DNA of 25,275 bases from Planctomycetia bacterium (GCA_041497795.1 JBGQHD010000001.1:1-25275); one strand, 5' to 3'. Positions 1,451-25,275 are shown, numbered from the stretch's first letter. Translations and numbers: made by a program. The notes: a model not told the origin generated them from the letters alone.

Positions 1451-2644
1451 ATGAGCGGCGGAACGGACAACGCCACGATCGGCCAGGACCGTCAGGAAAC
1501 TGTCGGCTCCAGGCTCTTCCTGCCCAAGCACGAATTGCCGGCCCTGTTTCGTGAATTGACGACCCGCGGCTACGAAATCATCGGACCGACGATCGACCAG
1601 CAGGCCATCGTCTACGACCGCATCGCCTCCGTGGACGATCTGCCCAAGGGATGGACCGACTCGCAGGAGCCGGGCAAGTATCGCTTGGCCCGCCGCGACG
1701 ACGAGGCGCTGTTCGGCTACGTGGTCGGCCCGCATTCCTGGAAACGCTACCTCTTTCCGCCCGAGGCGAAACTGGCCGCGGCCGAGCGCACGGCCTCCGG
1801 CTGGAAGTTCGCCGAGGCGGAGGACACCGCGCCCAAGTTCGCCTTCCTCGGCGTGCGGGCCTGCGACCTGGCCGCCCTGGCGGTGCAGGACCGCGTGTTC
1901 TTGACGGGGCCGTACGTCGATCCGATCTATCAACGCCGCCGCTCGCAGGCGTTCATCATCGCCGCCAACTGCACGCAGGCCGCGTCCACGTGCTTCTGCA
2001 CGTCGATGGGCACGGGACCGCGCTGCACGGCCGGGTTCGACGTGGCATTGACCGAGCTGCCCACGGGATTCTTGGTCGAAGTGGCCACGGCCCAAGGCGG
2101 CGACGTCGTCGCGGCCTTGCCGACGCAGCCCGCCACCATCGCGCAGCAGCAAGAGGCCGCCACCGCCCGCCAGCGTGCCGTCGATCAAATCCAGCGGCAC
2201 ATGAATACCGAGGGCATCCGCGACTTGCTGTTGACGAACCTCGAACACCCGCGCTGGGACGAAGTGGCGACGCGCTGCCTCTCGTGCACCAACTGCACGA
2301 TGGTCTGCCCCACGTGCTTTTGCAGCTCGGTGGAGGAAGTGAGCGACCTGACCGGCGACCACGTCGAGCGCCGCCGCCGCTGGGACTCGTGCTTCAACGT
2401 GGACTTCAGCTACATGAACGGCGGCAACGTCCGCAACAGCATCCGCTCGCGCTATCGCCAGTGGCTGACGCACAAGCTGGCTTCGTGGATCGACCAGTTC
2501 GACACCTCCGGTTGCGTGGGCTGCGGGCGGTGCATCACCTGGTGCCCCGTGGGCATCGACCTGACGGAAGAAGTGGCCGCAATCCGCAGCAGCCCGGCTG
2601 TTGTCGAGCAGCCGGGCCGCGTGGCCCGCGGGGAGGCCACATGA
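1451..2644 (+). CDS. hydB: Group 3b [NiFe]-hydrogenase beta subunit (Fe-S protein, AsrA-like)
   Basis: [32 protein letters not shown] and [16 protein letters not shown] Fe-S motifs; GAGGGAG RBS upstream. Confidence 0.92.
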
Positions 2645-3504
2645 CTGCCGCCGCGTGCGCCGCCCAGCCGGCCGCCCATCCCTGGCTGGCCCAAACGGTG
2701 GCCATCCGCGAAATCACGGCGGAAATCGACGGCGTGGCCACCTATCACCTCACGTTCCAGGATCAGGCCGCCGCGGAGCGCTACCGCTTCGCGCCGGGGC
2801 AATTCAACATGCTGTACCTGCCCGGGGCGGGCGAGATTCCGATTTCACTGAGCGAAGACCCGCGGGCCGAGCAAAGCTGGGCGCACACGGTGCGCGAGGC
2901 GGGCAACGTCACGCGCACGCTGGCCCGGTTGCGAGCGGGCGAGACGCTGGGTCTGCGCGGCCCCTTTGGCACCTGCTGGCCGATGGACGATTGCCAAGGC
3001 CGCGACGTGGTGCTGGTCGCAGGCGGCATCGGTCTGGCCCCCTTGCGTCCGGCCGTCTATCAGCTCCTGCACGAGCCGGGCCGCTACGGCCGGCTGCACC
3101 TCTTGTACGGCGCTCGATCCCCCAACACGCTGTTGTACACGCGGGAATTCGACGATTGGACCAGCCGCGGGCTGCGCATTCAGACCACCGTGGACCGCGC
3201 GGCGCCCGGCTGGGACGGCAACGTGGGCGTCGTGCCGCTGCTCTTGGAACGCCTGCGCGACTTCGACCCGGCGAGCGCCATCCTGCTGGCCTGCGGGCCG
3301 GAAGTGATGATGCGGTTCACCGTCAAAGCCGCCCGGCAGCGCGGCATGACGCCCGGTCAGATCTGGGTCAGTCTGGAACGCAATATGCACTGTGCCGTGG
3401 GGCTGTGCGGCCACTGCCAGTTGGGTCCGGAGTTCATCTGCAAGGACGGCCCGGTGTTCCGCTATGATCGCCTTGCGCCGTTTCTCAACGTGGAGGCGTT
3501 GTAG
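2641..3504 (+). CDS. hydG: Group 3b hydrogenase gamma subunit (FAD/NAD(P)-binding, 2Fe-2S)
   Basis: ATG at 2641 overlaps the hydB stop (ATGA). Motifs [44 protein letters not shown]...CKDGPVF. The listed ORF start at 1651 is an upstream extension. Confidence 0.92.
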
Positions 3505-3576
3505 GTGCCGCCTGCCGGGCGGCACAAACGTCTTGTCTTGCGGCGCTTCTTGTTCCGCCCGGCAGGCGGAACCTAC
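3501..3576. repeat. Inverted doublet of GTAG-type REP-like elements, class A
   Basis: GTAGGTGCCGCCTGCCGGGCGGCACAA (3501-3527, +) and GTAGGTTCCGCCTGCCGGGCGGAACAA (3550-3576, -); each has an 8-bp internal stem. Confidence 0.85.
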
Positions 3577-3603
3577 TGGCCGCCAGGCCGCGTTTAACAG
3601 AAC

Positions 3604-4416
3604 ATGTCCCAACCCACTCGCAAGCCCAAGCTCGGCGTGTTCAAGTTTGCCTCTTGCGACGGCTGCCAGTTGTCGCTGCTGGACGCGGAGGACCAACTGT
3701 TGGCGGTGGCCGGGGCGTTGGACATTGCCTACTTTCTCGAAGCCAGCAGCCGCATCGACGTTGGGCCGTACGACGTCGCCCTGGTCGAAGGCTCGATCAC
3801 CACACCGGACGACGCGGAGCGAATCCAGGAAGTCCGCCGCAAGAGCAAGTTCCTGATCACGATCGGCGCCTGCGCCACGGCTGGCGGCATTCAGGCCCTG
3901 CGGAACTGGGCCAACGTCGAGGAGTTCATGAAGGCCGTCTACGCCTCGCCTGAGTACATTCGCGTGCTGGAGACTTCGACGCCGATCTCCCAGCACGTGC
4001 CGGTCGATTTCGAGCTTCGCGGCTGCCCCATCAACCAGTATCAGTTAATCGAAGTCATTGCCGCGATTTTGGCCGGTCGCAGGCCGCGCACGCCGGCGCA
4101 CAGCGTCTGCCTGGACTGCAAGCGCCGCGGCACGGTGTGCGTGATGGTCGCGCACGGGACGCCATGCCTGGGTCCGGTGACGCACTTTGGTTGCGGGGCG
4201 ATCTGCCCCGCCTACGACCGCGGCTGCTACGGCTGTTACGGGCCGGCGGCGGAGCCGAACCTGGTGAGCCTGACGAACCGCTTTCAAGCGGACGGCATGC
4301 CGCGGGATCGCGTCGTGCAAAGCCTCCGCGGCTTCAACGGCTATGCGCCCGAATTTCGCAACGAGAGCGATCGGCTGGAATCCGTAGCCGAAGTCGCCAG
4401 ACTTCGGGGAGACTGA
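3604..4416 (+). CDS. hydD: Group 3b hydrogenase delta (small) subunit
   Basis: [37 protein letters not shown]...GCYGCYG; no Tat signal, consistent with a cytoplasmic enzyme. Confidence 0.93.
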
Positions 4417-4450
4417 ACCTCGGACGCTGAACTCTGGCGAGTTCAGCTAC
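4384..4450. repeat. Inverted doublet of GTAG-type REP-like elements, class B
   Basis: GTAGCCGAAGTCGCCAGACTTCGG (4384-4407, +) and GTAGCTGAACTCGCCAGAGTTCAGC (4426-4450, -); 8-bp stems with the same GCCA loop. Confidence 0.88.
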
Positions 4451-4475
4451 GCCACACTCACAGCGGACGCCCACC

Positions 4476-5774
4476 ATGCCCGCGCCACGGACGATCAAGG
4501 TTGCCGCGCTGACTCGCGTGGAGGGCGAAGGGGGTCTGCACATCCGCCTGAGTGGCGAAACCATCGACGAGGTACGTCTCGAGATTTACGAGCCGCCGCG
4601 GCTGTTCGAGGCCTTTCTGCGCGGCCGGCCGCTGGAAGACGTGCCCGACATCACCGCCCGCATCTGCGGCATCTGCCCGGTGGCCTACCAGATGAGCTCC
4701 GTGCACGCCCTGGAGCGAGCGTTGGGCGTTGTCATCACGCCGGAGATTCGCCGGCTGCGGCGGTTGCTGTACTGCGGCGAATGGATCGAAAGCCACGTGC
4801 TGCACATGTTCCTGCTGCACGCGCCGGACTTCCTCGGCTACGACAGCGGATTGCAGATGGCCGAAAAGCACCCCACCGAGGTCCACCGCGCGCTGCGGCT
4901 GAAGAAGCACGGCAACCAGTTGTTGGAAATGCTCGGCGGCCGGGCGATCCACCCGATCAACGTCGCCGTCGGCGGCTTCTACCGCTGCCCGCGACGAGAG
5001 GAAATCCAGCGGCTGATTCCCGACTTCGAGTGGGGCCTGCAAGCGGCCGTGGAAGCAACGCGGTGGGTGGCGGGGCTCGACTTTCCCGACTTTGACGGGC
5101 AGTACGAGTTCGTCGCCCTGGCACATCCCGATGAGTACCCCATGAACGAGGGGCCGATCACCACCAGCAGCGGCGAGGCGTTCTCGGCCGATCAATTTGC
5201 CGCGGCATTTGAAGAGCGGCACGTTCCCCATTCCACCGCCCTGCATTCGCTTCGCAAAGCAACCGGCAAGCCGTACCTCGTGGGGCCACTGTCGCGCGTG
5301 AATCTGAACTTGGAGCGGCTCTCGCCCACCGCGCGCCGGCTGGCCGACGAGGTGAGCATCGACTGGCCCTGTGCCAACCCGTTCAAAAGCATCGTGGCCC
5401 GCGGTCTGGAGGTCGTGCACGCCTACGAGGAATCGCTGGACATCCTGCGAAACTATCGGCCGTCCCGCCCGCCGCGCGTGGCGTACGAATACCGCGCGGG
5501 CGAAGGCGCCGCCGCAACCGAGGCCCCACGGGGCACGCTTTATCATCGGTACGTCGTGGACGGCCAGGGCAAGGTTCGCGAGGCCCAGATCGTGCCCCCC
5601 ACCTCGCAAAACCAGGCGCAGATCGAGGCCGATTTGCGCCGCTGGGTGGCCCGCGTGCTGTCCGACGACGAGGCCCACACCGCCCGGCAATGCGAGAACT
5701 TGGTGCGTAGCTACGATCCGTGCATCAGTTGCTCCACACACTTTTTGAAGGTCGCGATCGAGCGAGGGACATGA
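4476..5774 (+). CDS. hydA: Group 3b [NiFe]-hydrogenase alpha (large, catalytic) subunit
   Basis: N-terminal TRVEGEG, L1 ARICGICPVAY, L2 YDPCISCSTH, then a 10-aa cleavable extension (FLKVAIERGT). Cys, not Sec, at the active site. Confidence 0.95.
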   Translation: MPAPRTIKVAALTRVEGEGGLHIRLSGETIDEVRLEIYEPPRLFEAFLRGRPLEDVPDITARICGICPVAYQMSSVHALERALGVVITPEIRRLRRLLYCGEWIESHVLHMFLLHAPDFLGYDSGLQMAEKHPTEVHRALRLKKHGNQLLEMLGGRAIHPINVAVGGFYRCPRREEIQRLIPDFEWGLQAAVEATRWVAGLDFPDFDGQYEFVALAHPDEYPMNEGPITTSSGEAFSADQFAAAFEERHVPHSTALHSLRKATGKPYLVGPLSRVNLNLERLSPTARRLADEVSIDWPCANPFKSIVARGLEVVHAYEESLDILRNYRPSRPPRVAYEYRAGEGAAATEAPRGTLYHRYVVDGQGKVREAQIVPPTSQNQAQIEADLRRWVARVLSDDEAHTARQCENLVRSYDPCISCSTHFLKVAIERGT

Positions 5775-5790
5775 CAATCAAGGCACAGTC

Positions 5791-5898
5791 CTCGTCGTGC
5801 TCGTGCTCTTAAACGTGCGCGATAAGAGCGTCCATTAGAGCACGATTAAGAGCACCAGCACGAGCACGATGACAAGCACGATGACCAGCACGATGACG
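5791..5898. repeat. AGCACG-based tandem and inverted repeat element
   Basis: Perfect 13-bp inverted repeat TCGTGCTCGTGCT (5795-5807) / AGCACGAGCACGA (5857-5869); three tandem 12-mers AGCACGATGACN (5863-5898). Confidence 0.8.
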
Positions 5899-5909
5899 AG
5901 AGACCGAGA

Positions 5910-6389
5910 ATGACATCAACGCGGCTCGCCGTAGGCATCGGCTCTCATCACGGCGACGACCAGGTCGGCTGGCGCGTCGCGGAAGAGCTTGCGCGCCACG
6001 GGCCGGCTGAGGTTTCCGTGCGACTGGCCCGGGCGCCGGCCGACCTGCTCGACTGGCTGCCCGCGGACTCGCTGATCCTTTGCGACGGCTGCCGCGGCTC
6101 CGGCCCGGTTGGCTGCGTGCGCGGCTGGTCGTGGCCCGACGCGCCTCCGTCGGATGGGCTGCGATGGAGCGGGACGCATCAGTTTGGCTTGGGGGAAGTC
6201 CTCCTGCTTGCCGACCGGATGGGCCTGCTCCCTTCGCGCATCGCCATTTGGACGGTCGAAGTGGATTCGGTTGTCCCTGGCGCGCCTCTGTCCGCACAAG
6301 TGGCTGCCGCGGTGCCCGTGGTCGTGGCCGCGATGCAGCACGAACTTACACGTCAGGATGGCCCCTCCTTGATCGCCCAACATGCATGA
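5910..6389 (+). CDS. Hydrogenase maturation endopeptidase (HycI/HybD family)
   Basis: AVGIGSHHGDDQVG, ILCDG and SGTHQFGL motifs; lies directly after the large subunit, which has a cleavable tail. Confidence 0.88.
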   Translation: MTSTRLAVGIGSHHGDDQVGWRVAEELARHGPAEVSVRLARAPADLLDWLPADSLILCDGCRGSGPVGCVRGWSWPDAPPSDGLRWSGTHQFGLGEVLLLADRMGLLPSRIAIWTVEVDSVVPGAPLSAQVAAAVPVVVAAMQHELTRQDGPSLIAQHA

Positions 6390-6762
6390 GACCTCGCTAG
6401 TCGCCGCGTTGCTGCGCCAGGTGGACCGCGTTCGTGCTGACCACTCTGCGTCGGCCGTCACGGAAGTCCACGTCCAGGTCGGTCCGCTGTCGGGCGTCGA
6501 ACCCCTGCTCGTGGCGGCAGCTTTTGAGCGGCTGAAGGCGGGCACTTCAGCCGCCGCCGCGCGGCTCATGATTGAGGAAGTTCCGCTGGAAGCCCTCTGT
6601 TCGCGCTGCGGCCTGGAGAGCGAAGTCCTCGATTTTCGATTTCGCTGCGCCCACTGTGGCCATGACGACGTGCGCGTCGTTCGCGGCGACGAATTCCAGC
6701 TTGTCAGCCTGACCGTTGATTCCGCCGACTCCTGCCCCTGCCCCGAGACGGCCGACGTGTGA
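6382..6762 (+). CDS. hypA: Nickel metallochaperone HypA
   Basis: MHE N-terminus, GPLSGVEP, two CxxC Zn motifs (CSRC, CAHC), GDEF. Confidence 0.95.
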   Translation: MHETSLVAALLRQVDRVRADHSASAVTEVHVQVGPLSGVEPLLVAAAFERLKAGTSAAAARLMIEEVPLEALCSRCGLESEVLDFRFRCAHCGHDDVRVVRGDEFQLVSLTVDSADSCPCPETADV

Positions 6763-6766
6763 TGCC

Positions 6767-7439
<673 letters not shown>

Positions 7440-7456
<17 letters not shown>

Positions 7457-9755
7457 ACAACACGTGACGTTGCGTGCTTTGTGCATCACGCTGGTTGGGC
7501 GTGTGCAAGGGATCGGCCTGCGCCCCGCGGTGGCTCGCTGGGCGCACGAGCTGCACCTGGCCGGCAGGATCAGCAACACGCAGCGCGGCGTGCAAATTCA
7601 TGTGGAAGGGTCGGAGAGCGCAGTGGATTGCTTCGTGGCGGGCTTGAGAGATCACCTACCGCCTACCGCCCAGGTTGAACAACTGGAAACGCAAGACTTG
7701 CCGCCGCAGGGCATGGCTGGTTTCGCGATTGCCAGCGGCGCCGGCGCCGGAGCGCTCGCCGCGCGTGTGCCAACGGACCAGGTCGTGTGCTCCGCGTGCC
7801 TGGCCGACACGGAAGCCCTCGACGACCGCCGGGCCGGCTACGCGCTGACAAGCTGCGCCGACTGCGGGCCGCGCTATTCGATTATCGACGCCATGCCCTA
7901 CGAGCGAGCGCAAACCGGCATGGCCGAGTTTGCCCTGTGCCCAGCGTGCCGGGACGAATACGAGTCATCCGCCGACCGCCGCTTCCACGCGCAGACGACC
8001 GCCTGTCCTCTCTGCGGGCCGCAGTTGTGGTGCCGCGACCGCTCCGGCAACAGCGTCGCTTCGGCCGATCAGGCGATTCAAGCGGCCGTCGGCGCGATCC
8101 AGCGTGGACAGATCGTGGCCGCGCGGGGCCTGGGAGGTTACCAGTTCGTGGTCGACGCTTCGTCGCAGGCTGCGGTCGAACGTCTCCGTCAGCGCAAGGG
8201 GCGCCACGGCAAGCCGCTGGCCGTCATGGTGGCATCGCTCGAAGAGGCTCGCAAACTGGTTTGGCTCGACACGTCGGAGCAAGAGCTGCTGACGAGCGCC
8301 GCGGGTCCGATCGTCGTTGCACGGGCGCGCGATGGCTCTTCGCTGGCCCGGGCAATTCATCCCGGTCTGGACACCGTGGGCGTGATGCTGCCGACGACGC
8401 CGTTGCATTGGCTGCTGCTGCGAGAATGCCGTTGTCCGCTCGTGGTCACCAGCGGCAACCTGGAGGGTGAACCGCTTGCTTATCGGCACGAAGAGGCGAT
8501 TCGCCAGTTGCGCGACGTGGCCGACCTCTGGCTGGAACACGACCGGCCCATCCGGCGGCCGATCGACGACAGTGTGGTCCGCGTCATGGCCGGCCGCGCG
8601 ACGACCATTCGCCTCGCCCGCGGATACGCCCCGCTGCCGCTGGCCCTGGACGCCCGGCACCCCATGTTGGCACTAGGCGGGCACCAGAAAGCGGCCCTGG
8701 CCCTGGCCAACGGCGCTCAGGCCGTGCTCGGCCCGCACCTTGGCGACCTGGATACGCTCGCCAGTCGCGACAGGCTATTGGAACAAATCGCAGCGCTGGC
8801 CCAGTTGTACGGCGTACGACCCGGCCGGTGGGCCGTGGACGAGCACCCGGACTACTTCTCGAGGCAGTGGGCACTCAGCCAGCCCGGAACGGTCGAGCCG
8901 GTCCAACATCATCACGCGCACATCGCAGCGGGAATGCTGGAGCACGGCTGGCTGGGCCGCGAGGTCCTGGGCGTCGCCTTCGATGGGACCGGCTACGGCC
9001 CCGACGGCACGATCTGGGGCGGCGAGTTCCTGCGGGCGACCGCGGCAGGTTTCAGCCGTGTCGCCCACCTGCGTCGGTTCCGCCTGCCCGGCGGCGAGCG
9101 GGCCGTGCGCGAGCCGTGGCGCGTGGGCGTGGCCTTAGTCGAGCAGGCGGCAGGCGCCGAAGAGGCGTCTCGCCTCGATTTTCCTCTCGGCAACGACGAC
9201 CGAGACGGTGACTGCTCCCGATTGCTCCGGGTCATCCATTCGCACCGTTTTTCGCCTATCACCTCGAGTGCCGGGCGACTGTTCGACGGCGTCGCCGCGC
9301 TGGCCCTCGGCGTGAGCCATTGCCAATTCGAAGGGCAGGCAGCCATGATGTTGGAGGCCGTCTGCCAGCGGGATGAGGCCGGAAGTTACTTCATCCCGGT
9401 GCGCGGCGAGCCATCCGGCGAATTGGATTGGCGGGAGATGATTGCTGCCGTGCTGCGCGAGCGGGCGGAAGGCGTTGCCCCCGGGATCATGGCCATGCGG
9501 TTTCATCGGGGATTGGCGCGGGCCATTGGATCACTGTGCCGTGCCTACGCGCCCTTGCCGGTCGTGTTGGGCGGCGGCGTGTTCCAAAATCGCGTACTCG
9601 TGGAACTCTTGGCGGAAGAACTCGGCGGCTCGGGTCAACCGCTCGGCCTGCCGGGGCTGATTCCCGTCAACGATGGCGGCCTGGCGGCGGGGCAGCTCGC
9701 CGTGGCAGGGGCGCGATCGCAACGAGACGCATCGGCCGTTAGCGCGGAGAACTGA
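7440..9755 (+). CDS. hypF: Carbamoyltransferase HypF
   Basis: Acylphosphatase domain (GRVQGIGLRP), four CxxC motifs, GLGGY, KPLAVM, HHHAH, DGTGYG.DGTIWGGE, SSAGRLFD, GGVFQN, NDGG. Confidence 0.96.
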
Positions 9756-9758
9756 AAC

Positions 9759-10049
9759 GTGTGCCTTGGCATTCCCGGCAAAGTTGTTCGTTGGCTCGGG
9801 CGGGAAGGCCCGTTCGCGCAAGCGGAAGTCGAGTTCGACGGACTGCGGCGGATCTGTCACATGGCCTGCGTGCCGGAAGCCGACGAGGGAGACTACGTGA
9901 TCGTCCACGCCGGGATCGCCATCAGCCGCATCGACTCACGGGAAGCACAACGCGTCTTCGAGACGTTGGCGGAGCTCAAGGACCATGACGGCTGGCTGCC
10001 AAATTCAGCGACTGACGCCGATGAGCGGGCGACGCGTGCTCGGCCTTAG
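9759..10049 (+). CDS. hypC: Hydrogenase maturation chaperone HypC
   Basis: GTG start; MCLGIPG with Cys2; GDYVIVHAGIAI. Confidence 0.95.
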   Translation: MCLGIPGKVVRWLGREGPFAQAEVEFDGLRRICHMACVPEADEGDYVIVHAGIAISRIDSREAQRVFETLAELKDHDGWLPNSATDADERATRARP

Positions 10050-10103
10050 CGACATCGAGCACGTCGGATTCACGAACTACATCCTGGCCGCGGTAGCGTG
10101 GGC

Positions 10104-11198
10104 ATGAAATACCTGGACGAATATCGCGACCCTGTCGCTGCACGCCGTCTGTTGGCGGAAATCCGCCGCCAGGCGACCCGCCCGTGGACGCTGATGGAGG
10201 TCTGCGGCGGGCAAACGCACAGCCTGCTTCGATACGGAATCGAAGTCGATCTGGAGGACGCGATCGAGTTGATCCACGGACCCGGTTGCCCGGTGTGCGT
10301 GACGCCGCTGGAGGCCGTGGACCTGGCCCAACAGTTGGCCCTCCGCGGCGACGTCGTGCTGGCCAGTTTCGGCGACATGTTGCGAGTACCGGGCAGCCGG
10401 CGAACCTTGCTGGACGTGCAGACGGAAGGCGGCCGCGTGCGGGCGGTGTATTCGCCGTTGGACGCGCTGGCCTGGGCGCAGCGCCATCCCAGCGAGCAGG
10501 TCGTGTTCTTCGCCGTGGGCTTTGAAACCACGGCCCCGGCGACGGCGTTGGCCGTGAAGCAGGCCGCCCACGAAGGCGTCGAGAATTTCAGCTTGCTCGT
10601 GGCTCACGTGCGCGTGTTGCCGGCGATGGAAGCGATCGTTCGATCGCCGGAGAATCGGGTCCAGGGTTTTCTGGCCGCCGGCCATGTCTGCACGGTCATG
10701 GGCTATGAGGCGTACGAGCCGTTTGTCGGAGCTTTCGGGCTGCCGGTCGTCGTGACTGGCTTTGAGCCGCTGGATCTGCTGGAGGGAATCCTGGCCTGCG
10801 TCCGCCAACTGGAACGCGGCGAACAGCGCGTGGAAAACCAGTACGCTCGCAGCGTGCGGCGCGAGGGCAATCCCGAGGCCAGGGACCTGGTCGAGGAGAT
10901 CTATCAGGTCTGCGATCGGCCGTGGCGTGGGCTGGGCGTGATCCCCCAAGGCGGCTTGGAACTGCGTCCAGCCTGGCAGCGGTTTGATGCCCAGCGGCGT
11001 TTTGCTTTGGAGCCGCTCCCCATCGTTGAGTCTGCCGTCTGCCGCAGCGCGGACGTGCTGGCCGGGCGAATGAAACCGCCGCAGTGCGAGAGCTTCGGCA
11101 CGCGCTGCACGCCGGACTCGCCGTTAGGAGCGCCGATGGTTTCTTCGGAGGGTGCCTGCGCCGCTTATTTCCGCTATCGGCTCGTGCCCACGGGATGA
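10104..11198 (+). CDS. hypD: Hydrogenase maturation protein HypD
   Basis: [34 protein letters not shown]-terminal C...C...[19 protein letters not shown] 10098 is an alternative start. Confidence 0.96.
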
Positions 11199-12313
11199 AA
11201 TCGAGGGTCCCTCGAGAGCTGGATGTGCGCATGGAACCGTCAAACACTTTACTCGCCGCGTCTCTGCCGGCCTGGCAACGCTCGTGCCCTGTACCGATTC
11301 CGCCGCACGACGGCCGCATCACGCTGGCTCACGGAGACGGCGGACGTCTCTCGCGCCAACTGTTGCGAGACTTGATTCTACCGGCGCTCGGAAACGAGCA
11401 CCTCGCGGCCCTCGACGACGCGGCGCGGCTGCCGCGGATCGAGGGCCGCCTGGCCTTCACGACCGACAGCTTTGTGGTTTCGCCGCTGTTCTTCCCCGGC
11501 GGCGACATCGGTTCGCTGGCCGTCTTCGGCACGGTCAACGACCTGGCGGTCAACGGGGCCCGTCCGCGCTGGCTGACGCTGTCGTTGATCCTCGAAGAGG
11601 GCCTGCCGCGGGCCGTCCTCCGCTGCGTGCTGCAAAGCGTCGCGCGGGCCGCCCGTCAGGCCGAGGTGCAAGTGGTCGCCGGGGATACCAAAGTGGTTCC
11701 TCGCGGCGCGGCCGACGGTCTGTTCATCAACACGGCCGGAATCGGCGAACTGATCGAACCTTTTCCGCCGGGGCCAGCGCACTTGCAAGTGGGGGACGAG
11801 CTGATCGTCAGCGGCCCGATCGGTCGGCATGGGATCGCCGTATTGGCGGCGCGAGAAGATCTGGCCGTGGACCCGCCGAAGAGCGACGCAGCTCCCTTGC
11901 TGCCGGCCGTCGAATCGCTGCGCCGCGCCCTGGGGGGCCGGGTGCGGGCCATGCGCGACGCCACCCGCGGCGGGGTCGCGGCCGTATTGCACGAATGGTC
12001 CGCCGCTTGCGGCCATACGCTGAGCGTGCTCGAGCCTAGCATACCGGTTCCGCCAGAGGTCCGTGGCGCTTGCGAGTTGTTGGGGCTCGACCCTCTGCAC
12101 GTGGCCAACGAGGGAACCATGCTGGTGGCGGTCGAAGCCGGCGCCGGCGAGGCGGCCCTGAGCGCCTTGAAGGCCGTGCCCGGGGCCGCCGGCGCCGCAC
12201 TCATCGGCCACGTTCGTCCGCGCGGCGTGGCAGCCGTCACGGTGCGGCGCGCCTTGGGACGCGAACAGCCGCTGGACGATCCGTTGGGCGCGCCGCTGCC
12301 GCGGATTTGCTGA
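11195..12313 (+). CDS. hypE: Carbamoyl dehydratase HypE
   Basis: [50 protein letters not shown]-terminal PRIC. ATG 11195 overlaps the hypD stop; 11231 is an alternative start. Confidence 0.96.
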
Positions 12314-18222: not shown

Positions 18223-18825
18223 ATGATGCGGAGCTCTTCGCAGCCGCAGTTGATCTTGGCCAGCGCGTCGCCTCGGCGGCGCGAGCTGCTCGCCGAAGCC
18301 GGGTTCATTTTCGACGTCCGGCCGCCCTCGCCCGAAGCGGAAGGATCCGCCCACCCGGGAGAACCCGCGGCCGATCTCGTGCTGCGCCTGGCAGTACAGA
18401 AGGCGCGCGACGTAGCGCAGCGTGCCTCGGCGGGCGACCGGGGCAAACTGATCGTGGCCTGCGACACGGTGGCCGCGTGCGACGGCGAGATTCTGGGCAA
18501 GCCGACGGACGAGGCCGACGCCCGGGCCATGCTGCGGCTGCTCAGCGGGCGCACGCACGAGGTCTACAGCGGCCTGTGTCTCTACCCGCTCGACGGCCGG
18601 GCGGCCGACGTGCGGCTGGCGCGCACTACGCTGCTGATGGACCCCCTCAGCGACCACGACATCGACGACTACCTCGCCGGCGGCGGCTGGCAAGGGAAGG
18701 CCGGCGGCTTCGGCTACCAGGACCGCTTGGGATGGATTCATATCCTCGAGGGAAGCGAGTCGAACGTCGTGGGACTCCCGATCGAGCTGCTGGGGGAAAT
18801 GCTCGGCTCGATAATGCTCGGTTGA
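18223..18825 (+). CDS. maf: Maf-family nucleoside triphosphate pyrophosphatase
   Basis: LILASASPRRRELL, A..KA, DTV, ILGKP, LSGRTHEV, GKAGG, NVVGLP. Confidence 0.93.
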   Translation: MMRSSSQPQLILASASPRRRELLAEAGFIFDVRPPSPEAEGSAHPGEPAADLVLRLAVQKARDVAQRASAGDRGKLIVACDTVAACDGEILGKPTDEADARAMLRLLSGRTHEVYSGLCLYPLDGRAADVRLARTTLLMDPLSDHDIDDYLAGGGWQGKAGGFGYQDRLGWIHILEGSESNVVGLPIELLGEMLGSIMLG

Positions 18826-18889
18826 TAATGCTCCGTTCGATGCGGCTCGGCTAGCAGTCTGTCTCGCTCGGATCGAGAGGCGGCAAGCC

Positions 18890-18943
18890 GTAGCCGGACT
18901 CGCCCGAGTTCAGCTACTTCCGAAGTCTGGCGACTTCGGCTAC
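18890..18943. repeat. Class B GTAG REP-like cluster, second locus
   Basis: 18920-18943 is the exact reverse complement of 4384-4407 (24/24). 18890-18917 (GTAGCCGGACTCGCCCGAGTTCAGCTAC) is a degenerate variant with GTAG at both ends. Confidence 0.9.
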
Positions 18944-18999
18944 AGAAGCAGGTGACAAGCCGATCAATCAGCTCGCGTGCCCTGCGCCGCCTACGCAAC

Positions 19000-19032
19000 A
19001 AAAAACCCCAGCCTTCGCAGAGAAGGCTGGGG
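19000..19032 (-). terminator. Rho-independent terminator of the large vWA gene
   Basis: Minus strand CCCCAGCCTTC-TCTGC-GAAGGCTGGGG (11-bp stem) followed by TTTTTT, 36 nt after the stop. Confidence 0.88.
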
Positions 19033-19068
19033 AAGAAGCGTAAAACCAACACTTGGTTGGGCCAAGAT

Positions 19069-22000
19069 CTAGAATTGGCCACCACCACCTCCTCCTCCTC
19101 CTCCTCCACCTCCTCCTCCGGAGAACCCGCCACCGCCAAAGCCGCCCTGGCTGCCACCGCCGCCTTGGCCGCCGCCGTTGAAGGTCTGGCTGCCGGCGCC
19201 GGTGGCGAAGTTGAAGATGTTCACCTCGGAAATCTGCGAGAACTGCGGTCGCACCTGGGTACGGACGAAGCGGCGGTCGCCCGAGATCACGGCGCTAATG
19301 AACAACTGGGCCCCTTCCGGGATGATCACGATCACCGGCTGGTAGCCCACGGCCCGGTTGCGGCCCGGGCGCGGGGCCATGGCCACGCGCTGGTTGGCCG
19401 CGTCCATCGCTCGAGCGTAGGAGTCCCCGTCGGTGGCTTCCCAGAGCAGGCGACGGATTTCGTCGCGCGTCTGCTGAGCCCGCTCCACGGAGTGGACGAT
19501 TTCCTCGTCATTCAGCGCCCGAACCCTACGGCCCCCGTCGAACTCGAAGGCCAGCATCACGTCCTTGTCCTTGATATCGATCCAATTCTCGGACGACTCG
19601 GGAGACCGCTCGACCAGGTTCTGCCGGCGGGCCTTGTAGTGCTTGACGATCTCGACCTTGACCTTGTCGGCCGAGGGCCGGCCGAACACCCGCCGCAACA
19701 CCAGGCGGTACTTGCCGTTGAAGGCCAGCGGACAAACGTAGGCCTCGGTCTGGCGGCCCTGAAGCTTTTCGTCCGCGCCCGGGAAATCGCTGCTGAGCAG
19801 CGTTCCGCCCGACGTGGTGCGGGGGTTCTGCGCCGTGCACCAGGTGCCGGCGGGCTCCTCGACCAAGAGGTCGATGTCGGCCTCGCCGGTCCACGACACC
19901 ATCACCATCACGTCGCGCCGCAGCGCGTCGGTGACGGCATCCTCAAACTCCTGGGCTTCCTTGAGGCGTTTCTCGCTGCGCAGCTTCTGGATCGTCGCCT
20001 TGGCGATGCGCGAGGCCGAGTCGGCCACGGCGCGGTCCTCGCTGCTCCAGGCCTGACTCATCAGGCCGACGGTCGCCCAGCGGATGCCCGCCATGTCGTC
20101 CAGCGTCTTGGCCACGGTCAGGCCGTGCACGTAGGCATCGACGGCCGTGGGGTCCAACTGGGCGACCTGGCGGAAGATCTTCAGCGCCCGGGCCTGGAAC
20201 CGCTGGCGCGCCTTCTGGTCCGCGTAGAACGTCGAGCGGTAGATGTATTGACCGAGGTACATCAGGTCGGTGGTATTGTTCGCGAAATCTGCCGCCGACA
20301 TCAAGGTCCGCTCGATCTCCTCCGGCGGGTCGTTGGCGGCGAACATCGCCAAAGCCATGGCCTCGTACATCCAAGGCTGGGCCTGCCCGTTGCGCAGGGC
20401 CGCCTGGATCACCGAGACAATCTCCTGGTACTGCTTGGCCTCGCGCAGACCGCGGAGGGTGGCGCGAATCTCGTCGGTCGTCACGTCTTTGCGGCCGGCG
20501 AAGTACCGGTTCCAGGCCTCGGCCACGGCTTCGCCCGCCTGAGGCTTCAGGTCGATCGGCTTGGCCGCCTTGGCCGGGGCCGCCGCCGCGGGAGCGGCGG
20601 GCCGCACGTCCCGCTTGGGCGAATCGAGCTTGATCGGAGCGCGCTGCGGGTTGTAGGCCTTGAGCGGGCTGGACGGCACGCTGAAGAATCCGCCGCCGCC
20701 GCCGCCGCCCTGGCCACCACCACCGCCGCCGCCGAATTGGCCGCCACCTTGGCCGCCGCCACCTTGGCCGCCGCCAAAGCCGCCGCCTTGGCCGCCGCCC
20801 CCCCCCTGTTGGCCGAAGCCGCCCTGTTGGCCGCCGCCAAAACTTTGCGGAGGCAGGATCGGCATCACCAGGTCGCCCACCGGGTAGACCTTCGTCACCA
20901 GGAAGGTGTCCGCATCCTCCTTCGAGGTGATCAGCAGCACCTCGTCGCGAACGATGTAGGACAGGCCCAAATCGCTGAGAATCAGCCGTAGGGCCGACTT
21001 CAGGGTCACGTTCTTGAGCACCTTGGTGACGGGCGTATCGAGCGTGACGTTGGCCTCTTCCAGCTTTTTCTGGCTGACTTCGATGTTGATGCCGTGGACA
21101 TCGGTGAAATACTTCACGACATCCCGCAGCGGAGTTTCATTGAACTCGACCTGCGTCGGCTTCTTCAGCTCCTCCATGATCTTCTTTTCGGCATCCGACG
21201 TGCTGGCCAGCGACACGGCCTTGTATTCCTCGCGGCGCTTGGTCATCGCTTCCCACCACTCTTTGGGCGGGAAGACCACGGGCGGCTCGTCCGGCGTGGG
21301 AATGTGCGAGTATTCCACTTCCCGCAGGGTGAGCAGCACGCCGCGAATCCGCTCGCGGCGGAGGAAGATGCCATCCTCGATCGCCCGCCCCATGGTGGCA
21401 TTCATGCCCGCGGCGACGATCTCCGGATTCCCCGGCGCCACCGACATGGCCAGGTCGGCCACGCTTTCGGCCTGGGTGAACTTCTTCTCATCCATCAAGG
21501 AATCGAACTTCGCCATCCACTGCGAGATGCGCTTTTCCCTGTCCACCAGCTCTCGGCTGATCCGCTGGTTTTCCGCTTGAATCGCCGCAGTCTCGGCATG
21601 GGTCAGGTTCTTGGTCTCGGCCAAGGCCTGCACCCGGCTAATCTGGGTCATTTGCGCTTCGATCCGGCTCACCAAGCCGTCCTTCAATTCCGGCGAAATG
21701 ATGGTGTCGCCTTGAACGCTCTGCTTGAGGAGCTTCAGGTTGTCCAGCGCCCCCTGCGGGTTCGACGTCATCAGCTTGCCGGCCCGGTCGAGATCCAAGC
21801 CGACCTGGCTCTGCAGCCGCTCTTCGTGAATCTTCTTGTCTTGGATCGCCTTGCCGAGCAAGCCGTCCGCCTGATCGGCGGGCTGCTTGGCTCCCGGCAC
21901 GTCCACCACGACGTCCGGCGGGGCCTTGCCCCCCGGGTTCTGCTGGAAAACCAGCAACCGATCGCCGGCGACATCCGGATCGATCTCGGCCGCCTGCTTG

Positions 22001-23238
22001 CCGAGCCGCTGAGCGAGACGTGGGTCGAGCTGCCGGACCTGGCCGGCGAGCTGGCGGAGCGCTTCGGCCTGGAACAACGTCAAGCGGCGCACTTCCATCA
22101 GGCCGGCCGATCCGACCGTGGCCAGCGATTCGCCGTCATCCCTCTGGGCCGCTTCGACGACCTTGGCCAGGTAGGCGTTGTCGTCGGTCGGCGCCGAGGG
22201 GGTGATCGTCCACGAGAACTCCTGCTTGGCGCCCCTCACCGTGCCGGTGAGGTGCACTTGGATGGCGGCCACGGCTTTGCCCTGGCCCACCAGGATCGTG
22301 TCGCGATCGGCCCGCAGGGGCGGAGTCCGCTTGGGATAGACCTCGCTCAGGCCCTCGGGAAGCTGCAGCTTCTCGGGCCACACCACAACTTCGGTCGCGG
22401 CGGCGGCCAACGACTCGCCGGCGGCCGGATCGCCCGGCTTCGTGTCGGCGTTGTCGAAGCCGACCACGCCGCCCGTGTGATTGGCGAACCGGGCCAGCAG
22501 GCCGGCAGCGACGCGGGGGCCGACGGCGTAGCTGGAGACCGGGATCCGCTCGCTGACCAGCAGCTCGACGACTTGCCTCATCTCCGTGGCATCCACCGAG
22601 CCGCCGATGTTCATGCCGTCGCCGATGTAGACGATGGCCCGCGGGTTGGCGGCGGCCTGGTTCTTCAGGCCCTGGAGCGCGGCCGCGGCGGTGGTCATGG
22701 CCAGCGGCATGTCGGTCGAGCCCAGCGGCACGCGCTGAACCAGCTTCTCGAGCGCCGCGTCAATTCCCTTGCCCGCCGGGGCCACGAAAGTGGCGCGGGT
22801 CTTTCCGGCCGCCTCGTTGGCCGTCATCGCGGCCACGGAGGTATCGGCCGCCAGCAGGCAGACGCGGTCGCCGGGGTTCAGCTTGCCGAGGAAGGCCCGC
22901 AGCGTGGCCAAGCCGCGCGTGCGGAATTCGCCGTTCTGGCTGGCCGACGTGTCGAAGATCACCACGATGTCGTGCGCGTCGGCCTTGTGCGGCAACGCGG
23001 CAGCGTCGGGCTTGACGCTGAGTGCAAAGAACTTGTCGAATTGATCCAGCCGCGGGGTTTTCAGCAGCGGGGTTTTCAGCAGCGGGGTCTTGAGCGCGAC
23101 CGTTTTTGGCGCCGTGGTTTTTGGCGGAAGCGCGCCTGCCTCTTGGCCGCGCTCGTCGCCGGGGAGACTCGCCGCCACGGCCATCGTCAAGACGGCCGCC
23201 GACAACGAAGCCACCACCAGAGGACGTGGTCTGAACAT
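19069..23238 (-). CDS. Large exported multidomain protein (1389 aa): vWA, STN-like, Gly/Gln linker, helical region, YfaP/DUF2135-like, secretin-like tail
   Basis: Signal peptide after ATG 23238 (GGGAG RBS); MIDAS DTSAS (22939-22953) and VYIGDG; TQVEFNETPLRDV...LKSALRLIL...LSYIVRDEVLLIT; VSWTGEADIDLLVEEP; own terminator. The CDS is secure; domain names are from recall. Confidence 0.88.
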   Translation of the reverse strand: MFRPRPLVVASLSAAVLTMAVAASLPGDERGQEAGALPPKTTAPKTVALKTPLLKTPLLKTPRLDQFDKFFALSVKPDAAALPHKADAHDIVVIFDTSASQNGEFRTRGLATLRAFLGKLNPGDRVCLLAADTSVAAMTANEAAGKTRATFVAPAGKGIDAALEKLVQRVPLGSTDMPLAMTTAAAALQGLKNQAAANPRAIVYIGDGMNIGGSVDATEMRQVVELLVSERIPVSSYAVGPRVAAGLLARFANHTGGVVGFDNADTKPGDPAAGESLAAAATEVVVWPEKLQLPEGLSEVYPKRTPPLRADRDTILVGQGKAVAAIQVHLTGTVRGAKQEFSWTITPSAPTDDNAYLAKVVEAAQRDDGESLATVGSAGLMEVRRLTLFQAEALRQLAGQVRQLDPRLAQRLGKQAAEIDPDVAGDRLLVFQQNPGGKAPPDVVVDVPGAKQPADQADGLLGKAIQDKKIHEERLQSQVGLDLDRAGKLMTSNPQGALDNLKLLKQSVQGDTIISPELKDGLVSRIEAQMTQISRVQALAETKNLTHAETAAIQAENQRISRELVDREKRISQWMAKFDSLMDEKKFTQAESVADLAMSVAPGNPEIVAAGMNATMGRAIEDGIFLRRERIRGVLLTLREVEYSHIPTPDEPPVVFPPKEWWEAMTKRREEYKAVSLASTSDAEKKIMEELKKPTQVEFNETPLRDVVKYFTDVHGINIEVSQKKLEEANVTLDTPVTKVLKNVTLKSALRLILSDLGLSYIVRDEVLLITSKEDADTFLVTKVYPVGDLVMPILPPQSFGGGQQGGFGQQGGGGGQGGGFGGGQGGGGQGGGQFGGGGGGGQGGGGGGGFFSVPSSPLKAYNPQRAPIKLDSPKRDVRPAAPAAAAPAKAAKPIDLKPQAGEAVAEAWNRYFAGRKDVTTDEIRATLRGLREAKQYQEIVSVIQAALRNGQAQPWMYEAMALAMFAANDPPEEIERTLMSAADFANNTTDLMYLGQYIYRSTFYADQKARQRFQARALKIFRQVAQLDPTAVDAYVHGLTVAKTLDDMAGIRWATVGLMSQAWSSEDRAVADSASRIAKATIQKLRSEKRLKEAQEFEDAVTDALRRDVMVMVSWTGEADIDLLVEEPAGTWCTAQNPRTTSGGTLLSSDFPGADEKLQGRQTEAYVCPLAFNGKYRLVLRRVFGRPSADKVKVEIVKHYKARRQNLVERSPESSENWIDIKDKDVMLAFEFDGGRRVRALNDEEIVHSVERAQQTRDEIRRLLWEATDGDSYARAMDAANQRVAMAPRPGRNRAVGYQPVIVIIPEGAQLFISAVISGDRRFVRTQVRPQFSQISEVNIFNFATGAGSQTFNGGGQGGGGSQGGFGGGGFSGGGGGGGGGGGGGGQF

Positions 23239-23352
23239 GGTTCCAACTCCCAGAGTGGTTGCTGCGCCCATTACAGCAGATCTGTTCCGAAGAGGGGGCT
23301 CTTGTTCCTAACCGCGGGACGGCGTAACGCGCGCAGCCCACAGTCACGGCTC

Positions 23353-23382
23353 ATTGTATTTAGCCGCCGCCATCCCTGCCAA
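23353..23382 (-). promoter_or_regulatory. Candidate sigma70 promoter for the large vWA gene
   Basis: Minus strand TTGGCA-N18-TACAAT (5/6 and 5/6 matches), about 115 nt upstream of ATG 23238. Confidence 0.5.
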
Positions 23383-23458: not shown

Positions 23459-23587
23459 GTCCACACAAGGAAGAACACCGAACGTCCACACAAGGAATGG
23501 ACACCGAACGTCCAACATCGAACGTCGAAACGTCGAACCAAAGACCTGTTCGATGTTGGACGTTGGACGTTGGACGTTGGATGTTCG
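23459..23587. repeat. Direct repeat pair plus heptamer-based palindrome
   Basis: GTCCACACAAGGAA(GA/TGG)ACACCGAAC x2 (23459-23509); perfect 17-bp inverted repeat 23507-23523 / 23548-23564; (GGACGTT)3 with degenerate flanking heptamers. Confidence 0.85.
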
Positions 23588-23697: not shown

Positions 23698-25032
23698 CTA
23701 GAGATCGCCATCCCACGGAGAGCCAAACGCGGGCAGGAAGTAATCCGGCAGCGGCGGCCGGGTCGCCTCGGTTTGGGGTTTCGTGCCATTGTCCGTTTCG
23801 TCATGGCCCGCTTCGTCATGGCCCGCTTCCTGGTCGCCGGGCGTCGTCGGCGCGGCCAGGACTTCCTCCGACAACTGCCCGAGCCGACGTGACACATCCT
23901 GGGCCGCGCTGCGCAGCGCGCCCCACACGTGGCCGCACCATTGACGCAGGCGACCGGGCTGGCACGGCTCGTCGTTCACATCCCACGAGTTCGGGCGAAC
24001 GTCGCAGCCATCGCCGCGGCACTCATCGTGAGAGCGATCGACGGTTTGAGGATCGACGGCTTGAGGATCGACGACGCCGGGTTCGACGATGCCGGGTTCG
24101 ACCTCTTGCCGGCCTTCCCAGCGATGGTAGGGGCCGTGATACGTATCGTCCTCGTCCGCTGGCGGGGGTTGCACCGGCGGCACGCTGTCCCGGTCGCGGC
24201 GGCGAGGGCTGAACCAGTCGCCGTCTTTGCCGTCGGCGTCCTCTTCGTCCTTCGACTCTCGACTGCCGTCGCCCGTGCGCTCGGCGGCGTCTGCCGCGCC
24301 CTTGACGCTCCCGGCGGCCTCATGGCCCTCCATTTGGCTGGCGATGGCGGCCCAATCCAGTTCGCCGGCCTCGGTTTCGTCCAGACCGTCGCTCTCGGCG
24401 TTGAGATGCTGGACGACAAATTGTCCGGCGCTATGCCGCCAATCGGCCAGCGATTCCTCGAGGCTGCGCAGCGGAGAGTCCCCGTCGGCCGGCATTTCGC
24501 AAAATGGCTCGGTCTCGCACGGTTCCTCGCCGCGGCACGCCGCGTGGTTCTGCGCCGTGTCCTCCGCCGCGTTTGGCGCTGCGCTGGGCGTTGCGTTGGG
24601 GGTTGCGTCCTGCGCCGCATCCTCCGTCGCGGCAGCGGGCGGCTCGCGGAGTTGGGGGCGGTCGAAGTTGCTGCCGTCGACGTCGTCGTAGAAGTCACGT
24701 GGGGGAGTCTGCGTCCCCACGGCCGACCGCGTCTCATCCACGACGAAGGGCCGCGGCGCTGCCGCTCTGGGCGACGCATCCTCGCCATCGCGGTGCACGG
24801 AATCGCCGTTCACGGCATCGCCGTTCATAGCATCGCCATACACAGAGTCGCCATACACAGAGCGGTGGGGACGGCCCTGCCATTGGCCCAATCCGTAAGG
24901 ACAGCAATACCCGTCCAGTGGGTAGAGCGCCACCGTGGGGCGGTCGGCGACGCGGGTGTGGGCAGCGGCTGCCGTCAGGGAGCAACACGCCGCGACACTC
25001 CAAGCTAACCCCAGGAAACGCATACGTTGCAT
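23698..25032 (-). CDS. Hypothetical exported acidic low-complexity protein (~444 aa)
   Basis: MQRMRFLGLAWSVAACCSLTAAAA signal-like N-terminus with AGGA upstream; D/E/A/P-rich; in-frame repeats; downstream terminator. The extension to 25275 is probably non-coding. Confidence 0.72.
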   Translation of the reverse strand: MQRMRFLGLAWSVAACCSLTAAAAHTRVADRPTVALYPLDGYCCPYGLGQWQGRPHRSVYGDSVYGDAMNGDAVNGDSVHRDGEDASPRAAAPRPFVVDETRSAVGTQTPPRDFYDDVDGSNFDRPQLREPPAAATEDAAQDATPNATPSAAPNAAEDTAQNHAACRGEEPCETEPFCEMPADGDSPLRSLEESLADWRHSAGQFVVQHLNAESDGLDETEAGELDWAAIASQMEGHEAAGSVKGAADAAERTGDGSRESKDEEDADGKDGDWFSPRRRDRDSVPPVQPPPADEDDTYHGPYHRWEGRQEVEPGIVEPGVVDPQAVDPQTVDRSHDECRGDGCDVRPNSWDVNDEPCQPGRLRQWCGHVWGALRSAAQDVSRRLGQLSEEVLAAPTTPGDQEAGHDEAGHDETDNGTKPQTEATRPPLPDYFLPAFGSPWDGDL

Positions 25033-25275
25033 GCCAGGATTCCTACGGGATGGTCGGGAATAGGAGCGGCAGGCAGGAGGGAGCCGCGCTAGGCGGGAGC
25101 AAAGTGCGGCGGCTGCCTGCTCGACGATGCAGTCCCCGGGAGGCCGCTCCCACTCAAGGGAGCGCGAGGACTGCCAGCGTGTAAAAAGGTATCGGTGGCA
25201 CGCGCCGCGGACCGTAAGGCAAAGGGCGGGCACTGGCGAGGGTTTGCCGGCGGTGCCCGCGCAGAGGCCGCGCAC

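Follow-up and report, generated by a model that had tools for sequence, protein, structure and literature searches.

Proteins that carry an N0/STN fold are known for docking onto partners by edge-strand pairing, as when GspC or PilP joins the N0 domain of a secretin or FecR joins the signalling domain of a transducer. All characterised N0/STN contexts are, to our knowledge, periplasmic. The envelope of the Pirellulales and their relatives is unusual: the periplasm is enlarged, crateriform pits and fibres are present, and hardly any of the proteins that make it up have been identified. According to a 2025 review, the mechanisms and players of macromolecule uptake in planctomycetes are still unknown (PMC12673574). 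Here we analyze a giant gene on the minus strand of a 25,275-nucleotide stretch of DNA from a Planctomycetia bacterium (GCA_041497795.1 JBGQHD010000001.1:1-25275; the whole stretch is called the window below), which an earlier note on this DNA had singled out as coding for a secretin-related envelope component and as its best candidate for an undescribed system.

This gene is real and adds a new member to a database family that is large but has no described function, and its architecture is a new combination of known folds with one undescribed module. On our best reading, it encodes an exported, non-membrane-spanning envelope protein and forms a single-gene unit. Three cassettes appear to be fused in it: cassette A consists of a VWA head of the inter-alpha-trypsin-inhibitor heavy chain (ITIH) type, in which the metal ion-dependent adhesion site (MIDAS) is intact; cassette B comprises a helical spacer, an N0/STN domain, a strand motif and a disordered Gly-rich stretch; and cassette C comprises a TPR-like block, a DUF2135-like beta-sandwich with a probable disulfide, a tail module and a second Gly-rich stretch. 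We favor a role as a tether or adaptor in the periplasm, with a ligand bound by the MIDAS head, a reading to which we give a probability of roughly 40%; we infer its compartment, partners and ligand from the features below. These are listed from the N-terminal to the C-terminal end, with residues numbered from the first codon of the whole open reading frame (ORF).

23353-23382, minus strand: sigma-70-like promoter match, TTGGCA, an 18-nt spacer and TACAAT (10/12), by consensus match only
19069-23271, minus strand: whole ORF of 1400 codons and a stop codon, with translation likely to begin at the ATG at 23238 (Met12), which gives 1389 residues
23161-23238, minus strand: signal-peptide-like N-terminus, residues 12-37 (basic start, hydrophobic core, AVA-AS), read from the translation and not by a predictor
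22252-22986, minus strand: VWA head of the ITIH type with MIDAS, together with the conserved stretch behind it, residues ~96-340, by Pfam and profile
21307-22236, minus strand: helical spacer, residues ~346-655, with a TPR-like repeat near its start, by Pfam in homologues
20902-21159, minus strand: N0/STN-fold domain, residues ~705-790, by Pfam in the family, AlphaFold2 (AF2) and Foldseek
20857-20895, minus strand: near-invariant strand motif K-V-Y-P-V-x-D-L-V-x-P-I, residues 793-805, by alignment
20683-20841, minus strand: Gly/Gln/Phe-rich low-complexity linker, residues 811-863, by composition
20560-20682, minus strand: Pro/Ala/Lys-rich linker, residues 864-904, read from the sequence and poorly conserved in the alignment
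19927-20559, minus strand: TPR-like helical block, residues 905-1115, by profile matches
19534-19917, minus strand: beta-sandwich, DUF2135/YfaP-like, with a conserved Cys pair, residues 1119-1246, by AF2 and hhalign
19384-19509, minus strand: two-helix hairpin, residues 1255-1296, from AF2 helices at module positions 144-169 and 171-185
19207-19350, minus strand: tail beta module of ~48 residues with the motif S-x-D-R-R-[YF]-V-R, residues 1308-1355, by alignment, profile and AF2
19072-19206, minus strand: C-terminal extension rich in Gly (29 of 45 residues) with Phe as its last residue, residues 1356-1400
19006-19032, minus strand: terminator-like hairpin (11 pairs, 8 of them G-C) followed by a TTTTTTGTTG T-run, 37 nt past the stop codon

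A whole-length search returned 751 relatives at E ≤ 1e-3 among 8000 candidates scored. The 120 matches listed are 1271-1457 residues long, share at most 56% identity with the query, come mostly from Pirellulales and are labelled 'hypothetical' or 'VWA domain-containing'. Among contigs representing one genome per species, 589 of the 722 genomic pattern matches encode relatives, and an uninterrupted full-length copy is present in 39 of the 76 loci kept. The sequences appear to be conserved far more than by chance. Named genera with a member are Blastopirellula (the cultured Blastopirellula marina has homologues), Anatilimnocola, Bremerella, Botrimarina, Novipirellula and Rhodopirellula, and Kolteria (order Kolteriales) has one at 28% identity; the family thus appears to range across Pirellulales and some other Planctomycetia. 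A further full-length member (L050, CAXMSB010000096.1) lies on a contig from a metagenome-assembled genome labelled Granulosicoccus, a gammaproteobacterium, where mis-binning is likelier than a genuine member outside Planctomycetota. No functional assignment for this architecture was found in the literature.

The earlier note had read the head as a vWA domain with an intact DxSxS motif, and this reading was borne out. VWA_3 (PF13768) matches residues 101-270 well above its cutoff (36.1 bits against 27, E 8.6e-9) and is matched in 35/35 aligned members. The MIDAS residues Asp-107, Ser-109, Ser-111, Thr-186 and Asp-218 are all present in the window's copy, and among 38 aligned members they are kept in 36, 37, 33, 38 and 35, respectively; a metal-dependent head, as the note proposed, is thus the probable assignment. 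ITIH4 (9c4f, residues 271-521; E 1.4e-9) and ITIH1 (E 3.8e-6) are both found with a profile of residues 90-362, over ~250 positions that include the stretch behind the VWA domain. A VIT domain was not matched in the window protein at E ≤ 1, nor is it among the families listed for 35 members.

The helical spacer that follows the head is matched by TPR_14 in 17 of 35 homologues, and in the three checked (3/3) the match lies at residues ~350-400. Behind it, the AF2 model shows helices at residues 641-702 and then a compact core at residues ~705-790 with a predicted local distance difference test score (pLDDT) of 85-89. Taken alone, the window protein gives only sub-threshold matches in this region (FecR_C at E 0.035, STN at 0.094 and the PilQ N-terminus at 0.012); its STN (PF07660) score, 13 bits for the whole protein and 16.7 bits once the region is excised, stays below the gathering score of 28.4, and the best PDB sequence match is the N0 domain of PilQ (6w6m, E 0.1). 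Across the family, FecR_C and STN each match 32 of 40 members, the best of them at E 1.2e-5 for STN. Foldseek places the N0 domain of PilQ (4ar0, E 2.2e-4) and a FecR-like anti-sigma factor (4m0n, E 2.9e-4) first for the model, followed at lower ranks by the N0 domains of GspD, XcpQ, EscC and InvG, the signalling domains of PupA and PupB, DotD, and phage baseplate hubs. The matches to PilQ, GspD and EscC N0 and to the STN domains of PupA and PupB have a probability of 1.0, and the compact ones align over 79-88 columns at a root mean square deviation of 2.2-4.3. These predictions together confirm, at the level of models, an STN/N0 fold at the place where an STN-like module had been noticed before. 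This fold is not specific to secretins. It is shared by the C-termini of FecR anti-sigma factors, the signalling domains of TonB transducers, DotD and phage baseplate hubs, and its presence does not make the protein secretin-related.

Directly behind the N0 domain lies the strand motif, in which Tyr-796, Val-798, Asp-800 and Leu-801 are kept in 38/38 members. In the monomer AF2 model the motif is unfolded, with a pLDDT of ~50. The low-complexity linker that comes next, already seen as a GGGQ linker, contains 38 Gly, 9 Gln and 6 Phe in 53 residues, and the family's median Gly fraction is 0.40 across the 90 residues behind the strand motif. P0226 and the L063 copy (L063:289-4323) carry an extra module of ~50 residues between the Gly-rich linker and the TPR-like block, with the pattern L-I-D-L ... 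W ... G-G-x-G-S; it is conserved where present and absent from the window's copy.

The tail motif is the best conserved part of the family. S-A-D-R-R-Y-V-R occurs in 112 of 121 family proteins, in agreement with the conserved tail that had been noted here, and Asp-1332, Arg-1333, Val-1336, Arg-1337 and Pro-1342 are invariant. AF2 predicts four short strands for the tail with a pLDDT of 50-77. Among 1.84 billion cluster representatives, a tail profile of 68 positions matched 1917 at E ≤ 1e-3, of which 1001 reach E ≤ 1e-10; the best 150 of the 1917 were inspected and are the family itself and fragments of it, and ~900 weaker matches, among which different architectures would be expected, lie outside that set. 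A search for shorter tail-bearing proteins gave three matches from only 13 candidates, a low number because the window's tail shares few exact words with the consensus. P0125, an exported protein of 241 residues, consists of a signal peptide, a helical stretch and two copies of the tail in tandem, and P0257 is a small exported protein with a single copy. The tail thus behaves as an autonomous, undescribed module of ~50 residues. P0125 would be a handy minimal construct for its study. A prediction of a four-copy tail complex scored 0.01 against a mark of 0.42 and, run without controls, says nothing either way.

The extension behind the tail is 3-98 residues long across the family, and its last residue is Phe in 78 of 121 proteins, including the window's copy, where a terminal Phe had been pointed out. 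We considered this Phe as an outer-membrane beta-barrel signal and rejected it: the last 45 residues are dominated by Gly, the length of the extension varies as given, and there is no terminal strand.

Each of the cassettes B and C also exists on its own. Cassette B with a signal peptide is found in 5 of the 76 loci (L027, L044, L060, L066 and L076) as ORFs of 270-540 residues, whose Gly-rich end often closes in Phe, and in two genomes it occurs alongside a full-length copy. At L027, a GspD-type secretin ORF (L027:968-5377, 1470 codons) lies on the same strand, 2.4 kb upstream of the cassette-B paralogue (L027:7794-9083). Cassette C with its own signal peptide is found in P0234, P0258 and P0145; P0226 and P0197 have no VWA domain, and P0248 has no N0 motif. 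In P0145 a PDZ domain follows the tail and the Gly-rich stretch (Pfam), and P0154 has a very similar C-terminal stretch with an apparent PDZ domain, judged by eye. These two cassettes are thus separate exported proteins elsewhere and are fused here, which suggests that the parts act together.

We propose a tether or adaptor function for the protein, within the enlarged periplasm. A periplasmic location is pointed to by the signal peptide, the conserved Cys pair of the sandwich, the N0 fold and the PDZ domain of the variants. The N0 domain and the adjacent strand may dock onto a partner by edge-strand pairing, by analogy with the characterised cases. The strand motif and the tail are candidate interaction elements because they are highly conserved yet poorly folded in the monomer models, a pattern typical of segments that fold on a partner, and the tail module may provide a second attachment site or a site of self-association. 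The MIDAS head would capture an acidic residue of a protein or polymer ligand via its bound metal, and the Gly-rich and Pro/Ala-rich segments would provide reach. It is the periplasmic indications, the docking habit of N0/STN domains and these candidate elements together that make us favor a tether or adaptor.

Several observations weigh against this proposal. Its localisation is deduced from domain content, and the protein may instead be secreted or displayed on the surface. The window protein's own STN match stays under the Pfam cutoff. None of the window's Maf, S51-like, SGL and ThuA genes and upstream ORF is found beside homologues (0/76 loci), and the RluA-like gene is found there in 2/76. 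The genes around it, Maf and RluA-like here and TsaD and HtrA-like at other loci, have housekeeping roles, and none stands out as a partner. Of the five short-paralogue loci, only L027 has a nearby secretin, L060 has a prepilin-peptidase domain, and the neighbours are heterogeneous. Finally, language-model leads to Secretin fragments, described below, could mean that the tail builds a barrel wall, which our proposal does not presuppose.

A secreted or surface-displayed adhesin would be an alternative to the periplasmic tether, possible although unlikely, in which a flexible stalk of helical and Gly-rich parts would carry the VWA head, and the head would attach to surfaces, to host material or to proteins associated with polysaccharide. 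MIDAS VWA heads are classic adhesion modules, ITIH-type VWA domains are extracellular in animals, and the signal peptide, the long linkers, the lack of a membrane anchor and the attached lifestyle of planctomycetes would all be consistent with this. The N0/STN domain and the PDZ domain of the variants are, however, periplasmic modules in the systems we know of. Moreover, the protein lacks a stalk of repeated Ig-like domains as well as any known signal for sorting or anchoring, and no secretion genes adjoin it.

We consider it quite unlikely that the protein is a minimal relative of secretins, with an N0 domain and a four-strand tail of secretin origin, many copies of which would assemble in the outer membrane into a ring or barrel wall without a gate, or would contribute strands to a true secretin. 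The order of the parts speaks for it, as the N0 domain precedes the tail just as N0 precedes the barrel in secretins, and so do the four short strands predicted for the tail and the short paralogue near a secretin gene at L027. In two language-model searches, Secretin (PF00263) fragments came first among the named clusters: the window's tail scored 0.90, with 169 of 256 features shared, and the tails of P0125 scored 0.93, with 178 features shared and 19 of 30 matches in the Secretin set; the structure rows of the latter search include a Secretin cluster at a template modelling (TM) score of 0.45. The scores of this tool are leads: it is not calibrated for protein parts, and 0.9 arises in 4-10% of shuffled proteins.

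All alignment-based tests, by contrast, were negative. PF00263 has no match in the whole protein at E ≤ 1 or in 40 C-terminal modules at E ≤ 10 (0/40). Secretin_N (PF03958), which covers the ring-building domains N1-N3, has none in the window protein at E ≤ 1 and is not one of the families (25 of 27) that were listed for 35 members at E ≤ 0.1. The tail profile retrieved nothing from PDB sequences at E ≤ 10, and Foldseek of the C-terminal module against the PDB gave nothing at E ≤ 1e-3, the rows listed being generic beta-sandwiches without a secretin. As a comparison set we used the planctomycete GspD-type secretin of L027 and 120 relatives of it, all of which carry PF00263 and PF03958. Against these secretin domains, hhalign gave the tail a probability of 0.18%, with 99.9% for the family's own alignment as a positive control, and against E. 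coli GspD the probability was 0.14%. Ungapped sliding profile windows peaked at z 3.9, with no top match on the secretin-domain hairpin that is most tail-like by eye. A hidden Markov model of the secretin domain, run over all ORFs of the 76 loci and the window, found the L027 secretin as its sole match.

The tail had been likened earlier to a strand pair of planctomycete secretin-like proteins, with the rest of the secretin domain absent. The absence is confirmed by these searches; the likeness finds no counterpart in any alignment and persists in the language-model leads alone. With an N0 fold that is shared by proteins of other kinds and a tail that does not align to PF00263, the description as a secretin-related envelope component is not supported as it was given. 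We put the odds that the tail is truly secretin-derived at roughly one in four, and give lower odds to a ring- or pore-forming role of the protein. The protein is not itself a secretin and, as read from its sequence, has no recognisable pore domain of its own.

A bolder picture, which we regard as very unlikely, would have the giant protein and the stand-alone cassettes form a gate-less ring in the outer envelope, with the tail as a stripped-down secretin barrel wall and a Gly/Phe, FG-like mesh inside. Such a ring could be a protein component of the crateriform pits or fibre portals that have been proposed to take up macromolecules.

The beta-sandwich of cassette C bears on another explanation, to which we give only a slight probability: a periplasmic protective factor, akin to the yfa genes associated with alpha-2-macroglobulin, that would trap or neutralise incoming proteases or attack proteins. 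The sandwich is modelled with a pLDDT mostly above 90, and its Cys pair is conserved (Cys-1145 in 37/38 and Cys-1180 in 35/38 members). It aligns weakly with residues 143-246 of E. coli YfaP, which are annotated as DUF2135 (hhalign, 101 columns, E 7e-4, probability 26%), and DUF2135 (PF09906) matches 3 of 40 members, with a best E of 0.01. The automatic label 'YfaP family protein' is attached to a Planctomycetota cluster whose structure resembles that of the two-tail protein P0125 (TM 0.43). The link to YfaP/DUF2135 appears weak but consistent, and the module claimed earlier is to that extent weakly confirmed; the window's own copy has no Pfam match. The resemblance of the head to inter-alpha-trypsin-inhibitor heavy chains would suit a protective factor, as would the position of yfaP in E. 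coli K-12 beside a pseudogene of yfaS, which we take to be of the alpha-2-macroglobulin type. Against it stand the weakness of the YfaP link itself, the fact that neither the window nor the loci hold an alpha-2-macroglobulin gene or a further yfa homologue close by, and the lack of an established mechanism for either ITIH or YfaP in bacteria; the titles of the DUF2135/YfaP literature give no function. A motor-coupled VWA force transducer (PMC12204202) was rejected, since the proteins described there contain a transmembrane helix and are encoded beside tolQ/tolR, and both features are missing here.

The block ahead of the sandwich was also revisited. A profile of residues 905-1115 gives weak matches to consensus TPR designs (E 7.4e-4 to 0.07), to YrrB and to the TPR region of OGT, and the TPR-like helices claimed for it are to this extent supported; no Pfam TPR match was found there in the window protein.

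At the 5' end, the ATG at 23238 is the likelier start, since GGGAG lies 8 nt before it, with no comparable site ahead of 23271, and the N-termini of homologues line up from Met12 onward. The start and the signal peptide proposed in the earlier note both fit this result; the latter is seen in the translation, and lacks a lipobox since it contains no Cys. One sigma-70-like site was found, compared with a mean of 0.1 in shuffled sequence. The gene looks monocistronic, with promoter-like and terminator-like sites of its own, given these two sites, a convergent Maf gene downstream (18223-18825, Pfam E 2e-50) and, upstream on the same strand, an ORF without a Pfam match. With a single gene and housekeeping neighbours that are not conserved, no operon or system is seen, and the suggestion of an undescribed system was not upheld.

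The upstream ORF (23698-25275, minus strand) has 525 codons as listed and is acidic and repeat-rich; it has no Pfam match and is found in 0/76 loci. Between it and the promoter-like site, positions 23459-23584 of the window hold an imperfect inverted repeat of 29 nt, 83% complementary, and short direct repeats (14-nt units and, on the minus strand, a CCAACGT heptamer run). They may serve as an operator or terminate the upstream gene, or they may be a small repeat element. ORFs at 18738-19157 (minus strand, no Pfam match) and 18952-20991 (plus strand) overlap the 3' end of the gene or its antisense strand and are by-products of the 66% G+C content; antisense ORFs across the giant gene recur in 72 of 76 loci.

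The other genes of the window code for a [NiFe]-hydrogenase and its maturation, for ThuA-, SGL- and S51-like proteins, and for an RluA-like protein and Maf. The hydrogenase cluster (window 1451-12313, plus strand) has subunits that match Fer4_22, NAD_binding_1/DHODB Fe-S, Oxidored_q6 and NiFeSe_Hases, followed by HycI, HypA, HypB, HypF, HypD and HypE-like matches, and is unrelated to the giant gene. Elsewhere, TsaD recurs in 36 loci, mostly downstream and on the other strand, and an HtrA-like protease is found near homologues in 27 loci, with 25 of the 27 ORFs upstream and on the other strand. We rejected both as functional partners. Both are housekeeping genes on the opposite strand and are not conserved with the window.

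If the tether or adaptor reading is true, the protein is one more modular periplasmic adaptor with an undefined partner. Because the family is conserved and joins a ligand-binding head to a secretin-type docking fold and a widespread beta module, it is a concrete, testable candidate for an envelope scaffold, and a definition of the tail module would give a name to part of more than 1000 unannotated proteins.

We compared the family to the described proteins closest to its parts. With E. coli YfaP it shares the pattern W-x-x-x-x-D-[VL]-D-L ... G-x-Y in the sandwich; YfaP, however, is a stand-alone protein of 258 residues, without an assigned function and without the tail module, and the window's copy of the sandwich stays below Pfam significance. 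With FecR anti-sigma C-termini and the STN domains of TonB transducers it shares a fold, as seen in the FecR_C matches (32/40) and in the Foldseek matches to 4m0n, PupA, PupB, FoxA and FpvA, whereas it has neither a transmembrane anti-sigma part nor a TonB-dependent barrel, and the Pfam scan found no sigma-factor gene nearby in the window. With inter-alpha-trypsin-inhibitor heavy chains it has in common a VWA_3 domain with MIDAS and the conserved stretch behind it; it differs in having no detected VIT domain, and everything past residue ~340 is unrelated to ITIH. With secretins such as GspD, PilQ, InvG and EscC, which form rings of 12-15 subunits in the outer membrane, it shares export, the N0/STN fold and the placement of this fold N-terminal to a conserved C-terminal beta module. 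Here the N0 domain sits at residues ~705-790 instead of at the N-terminus, the tail of ~48 residues compares with a secretin domain of ~270, with no alignable similarity and neither PF00263 nor Secretin_N, and the family adds VWA, TPR-like and beta-sandwich domains that secretins do not have.

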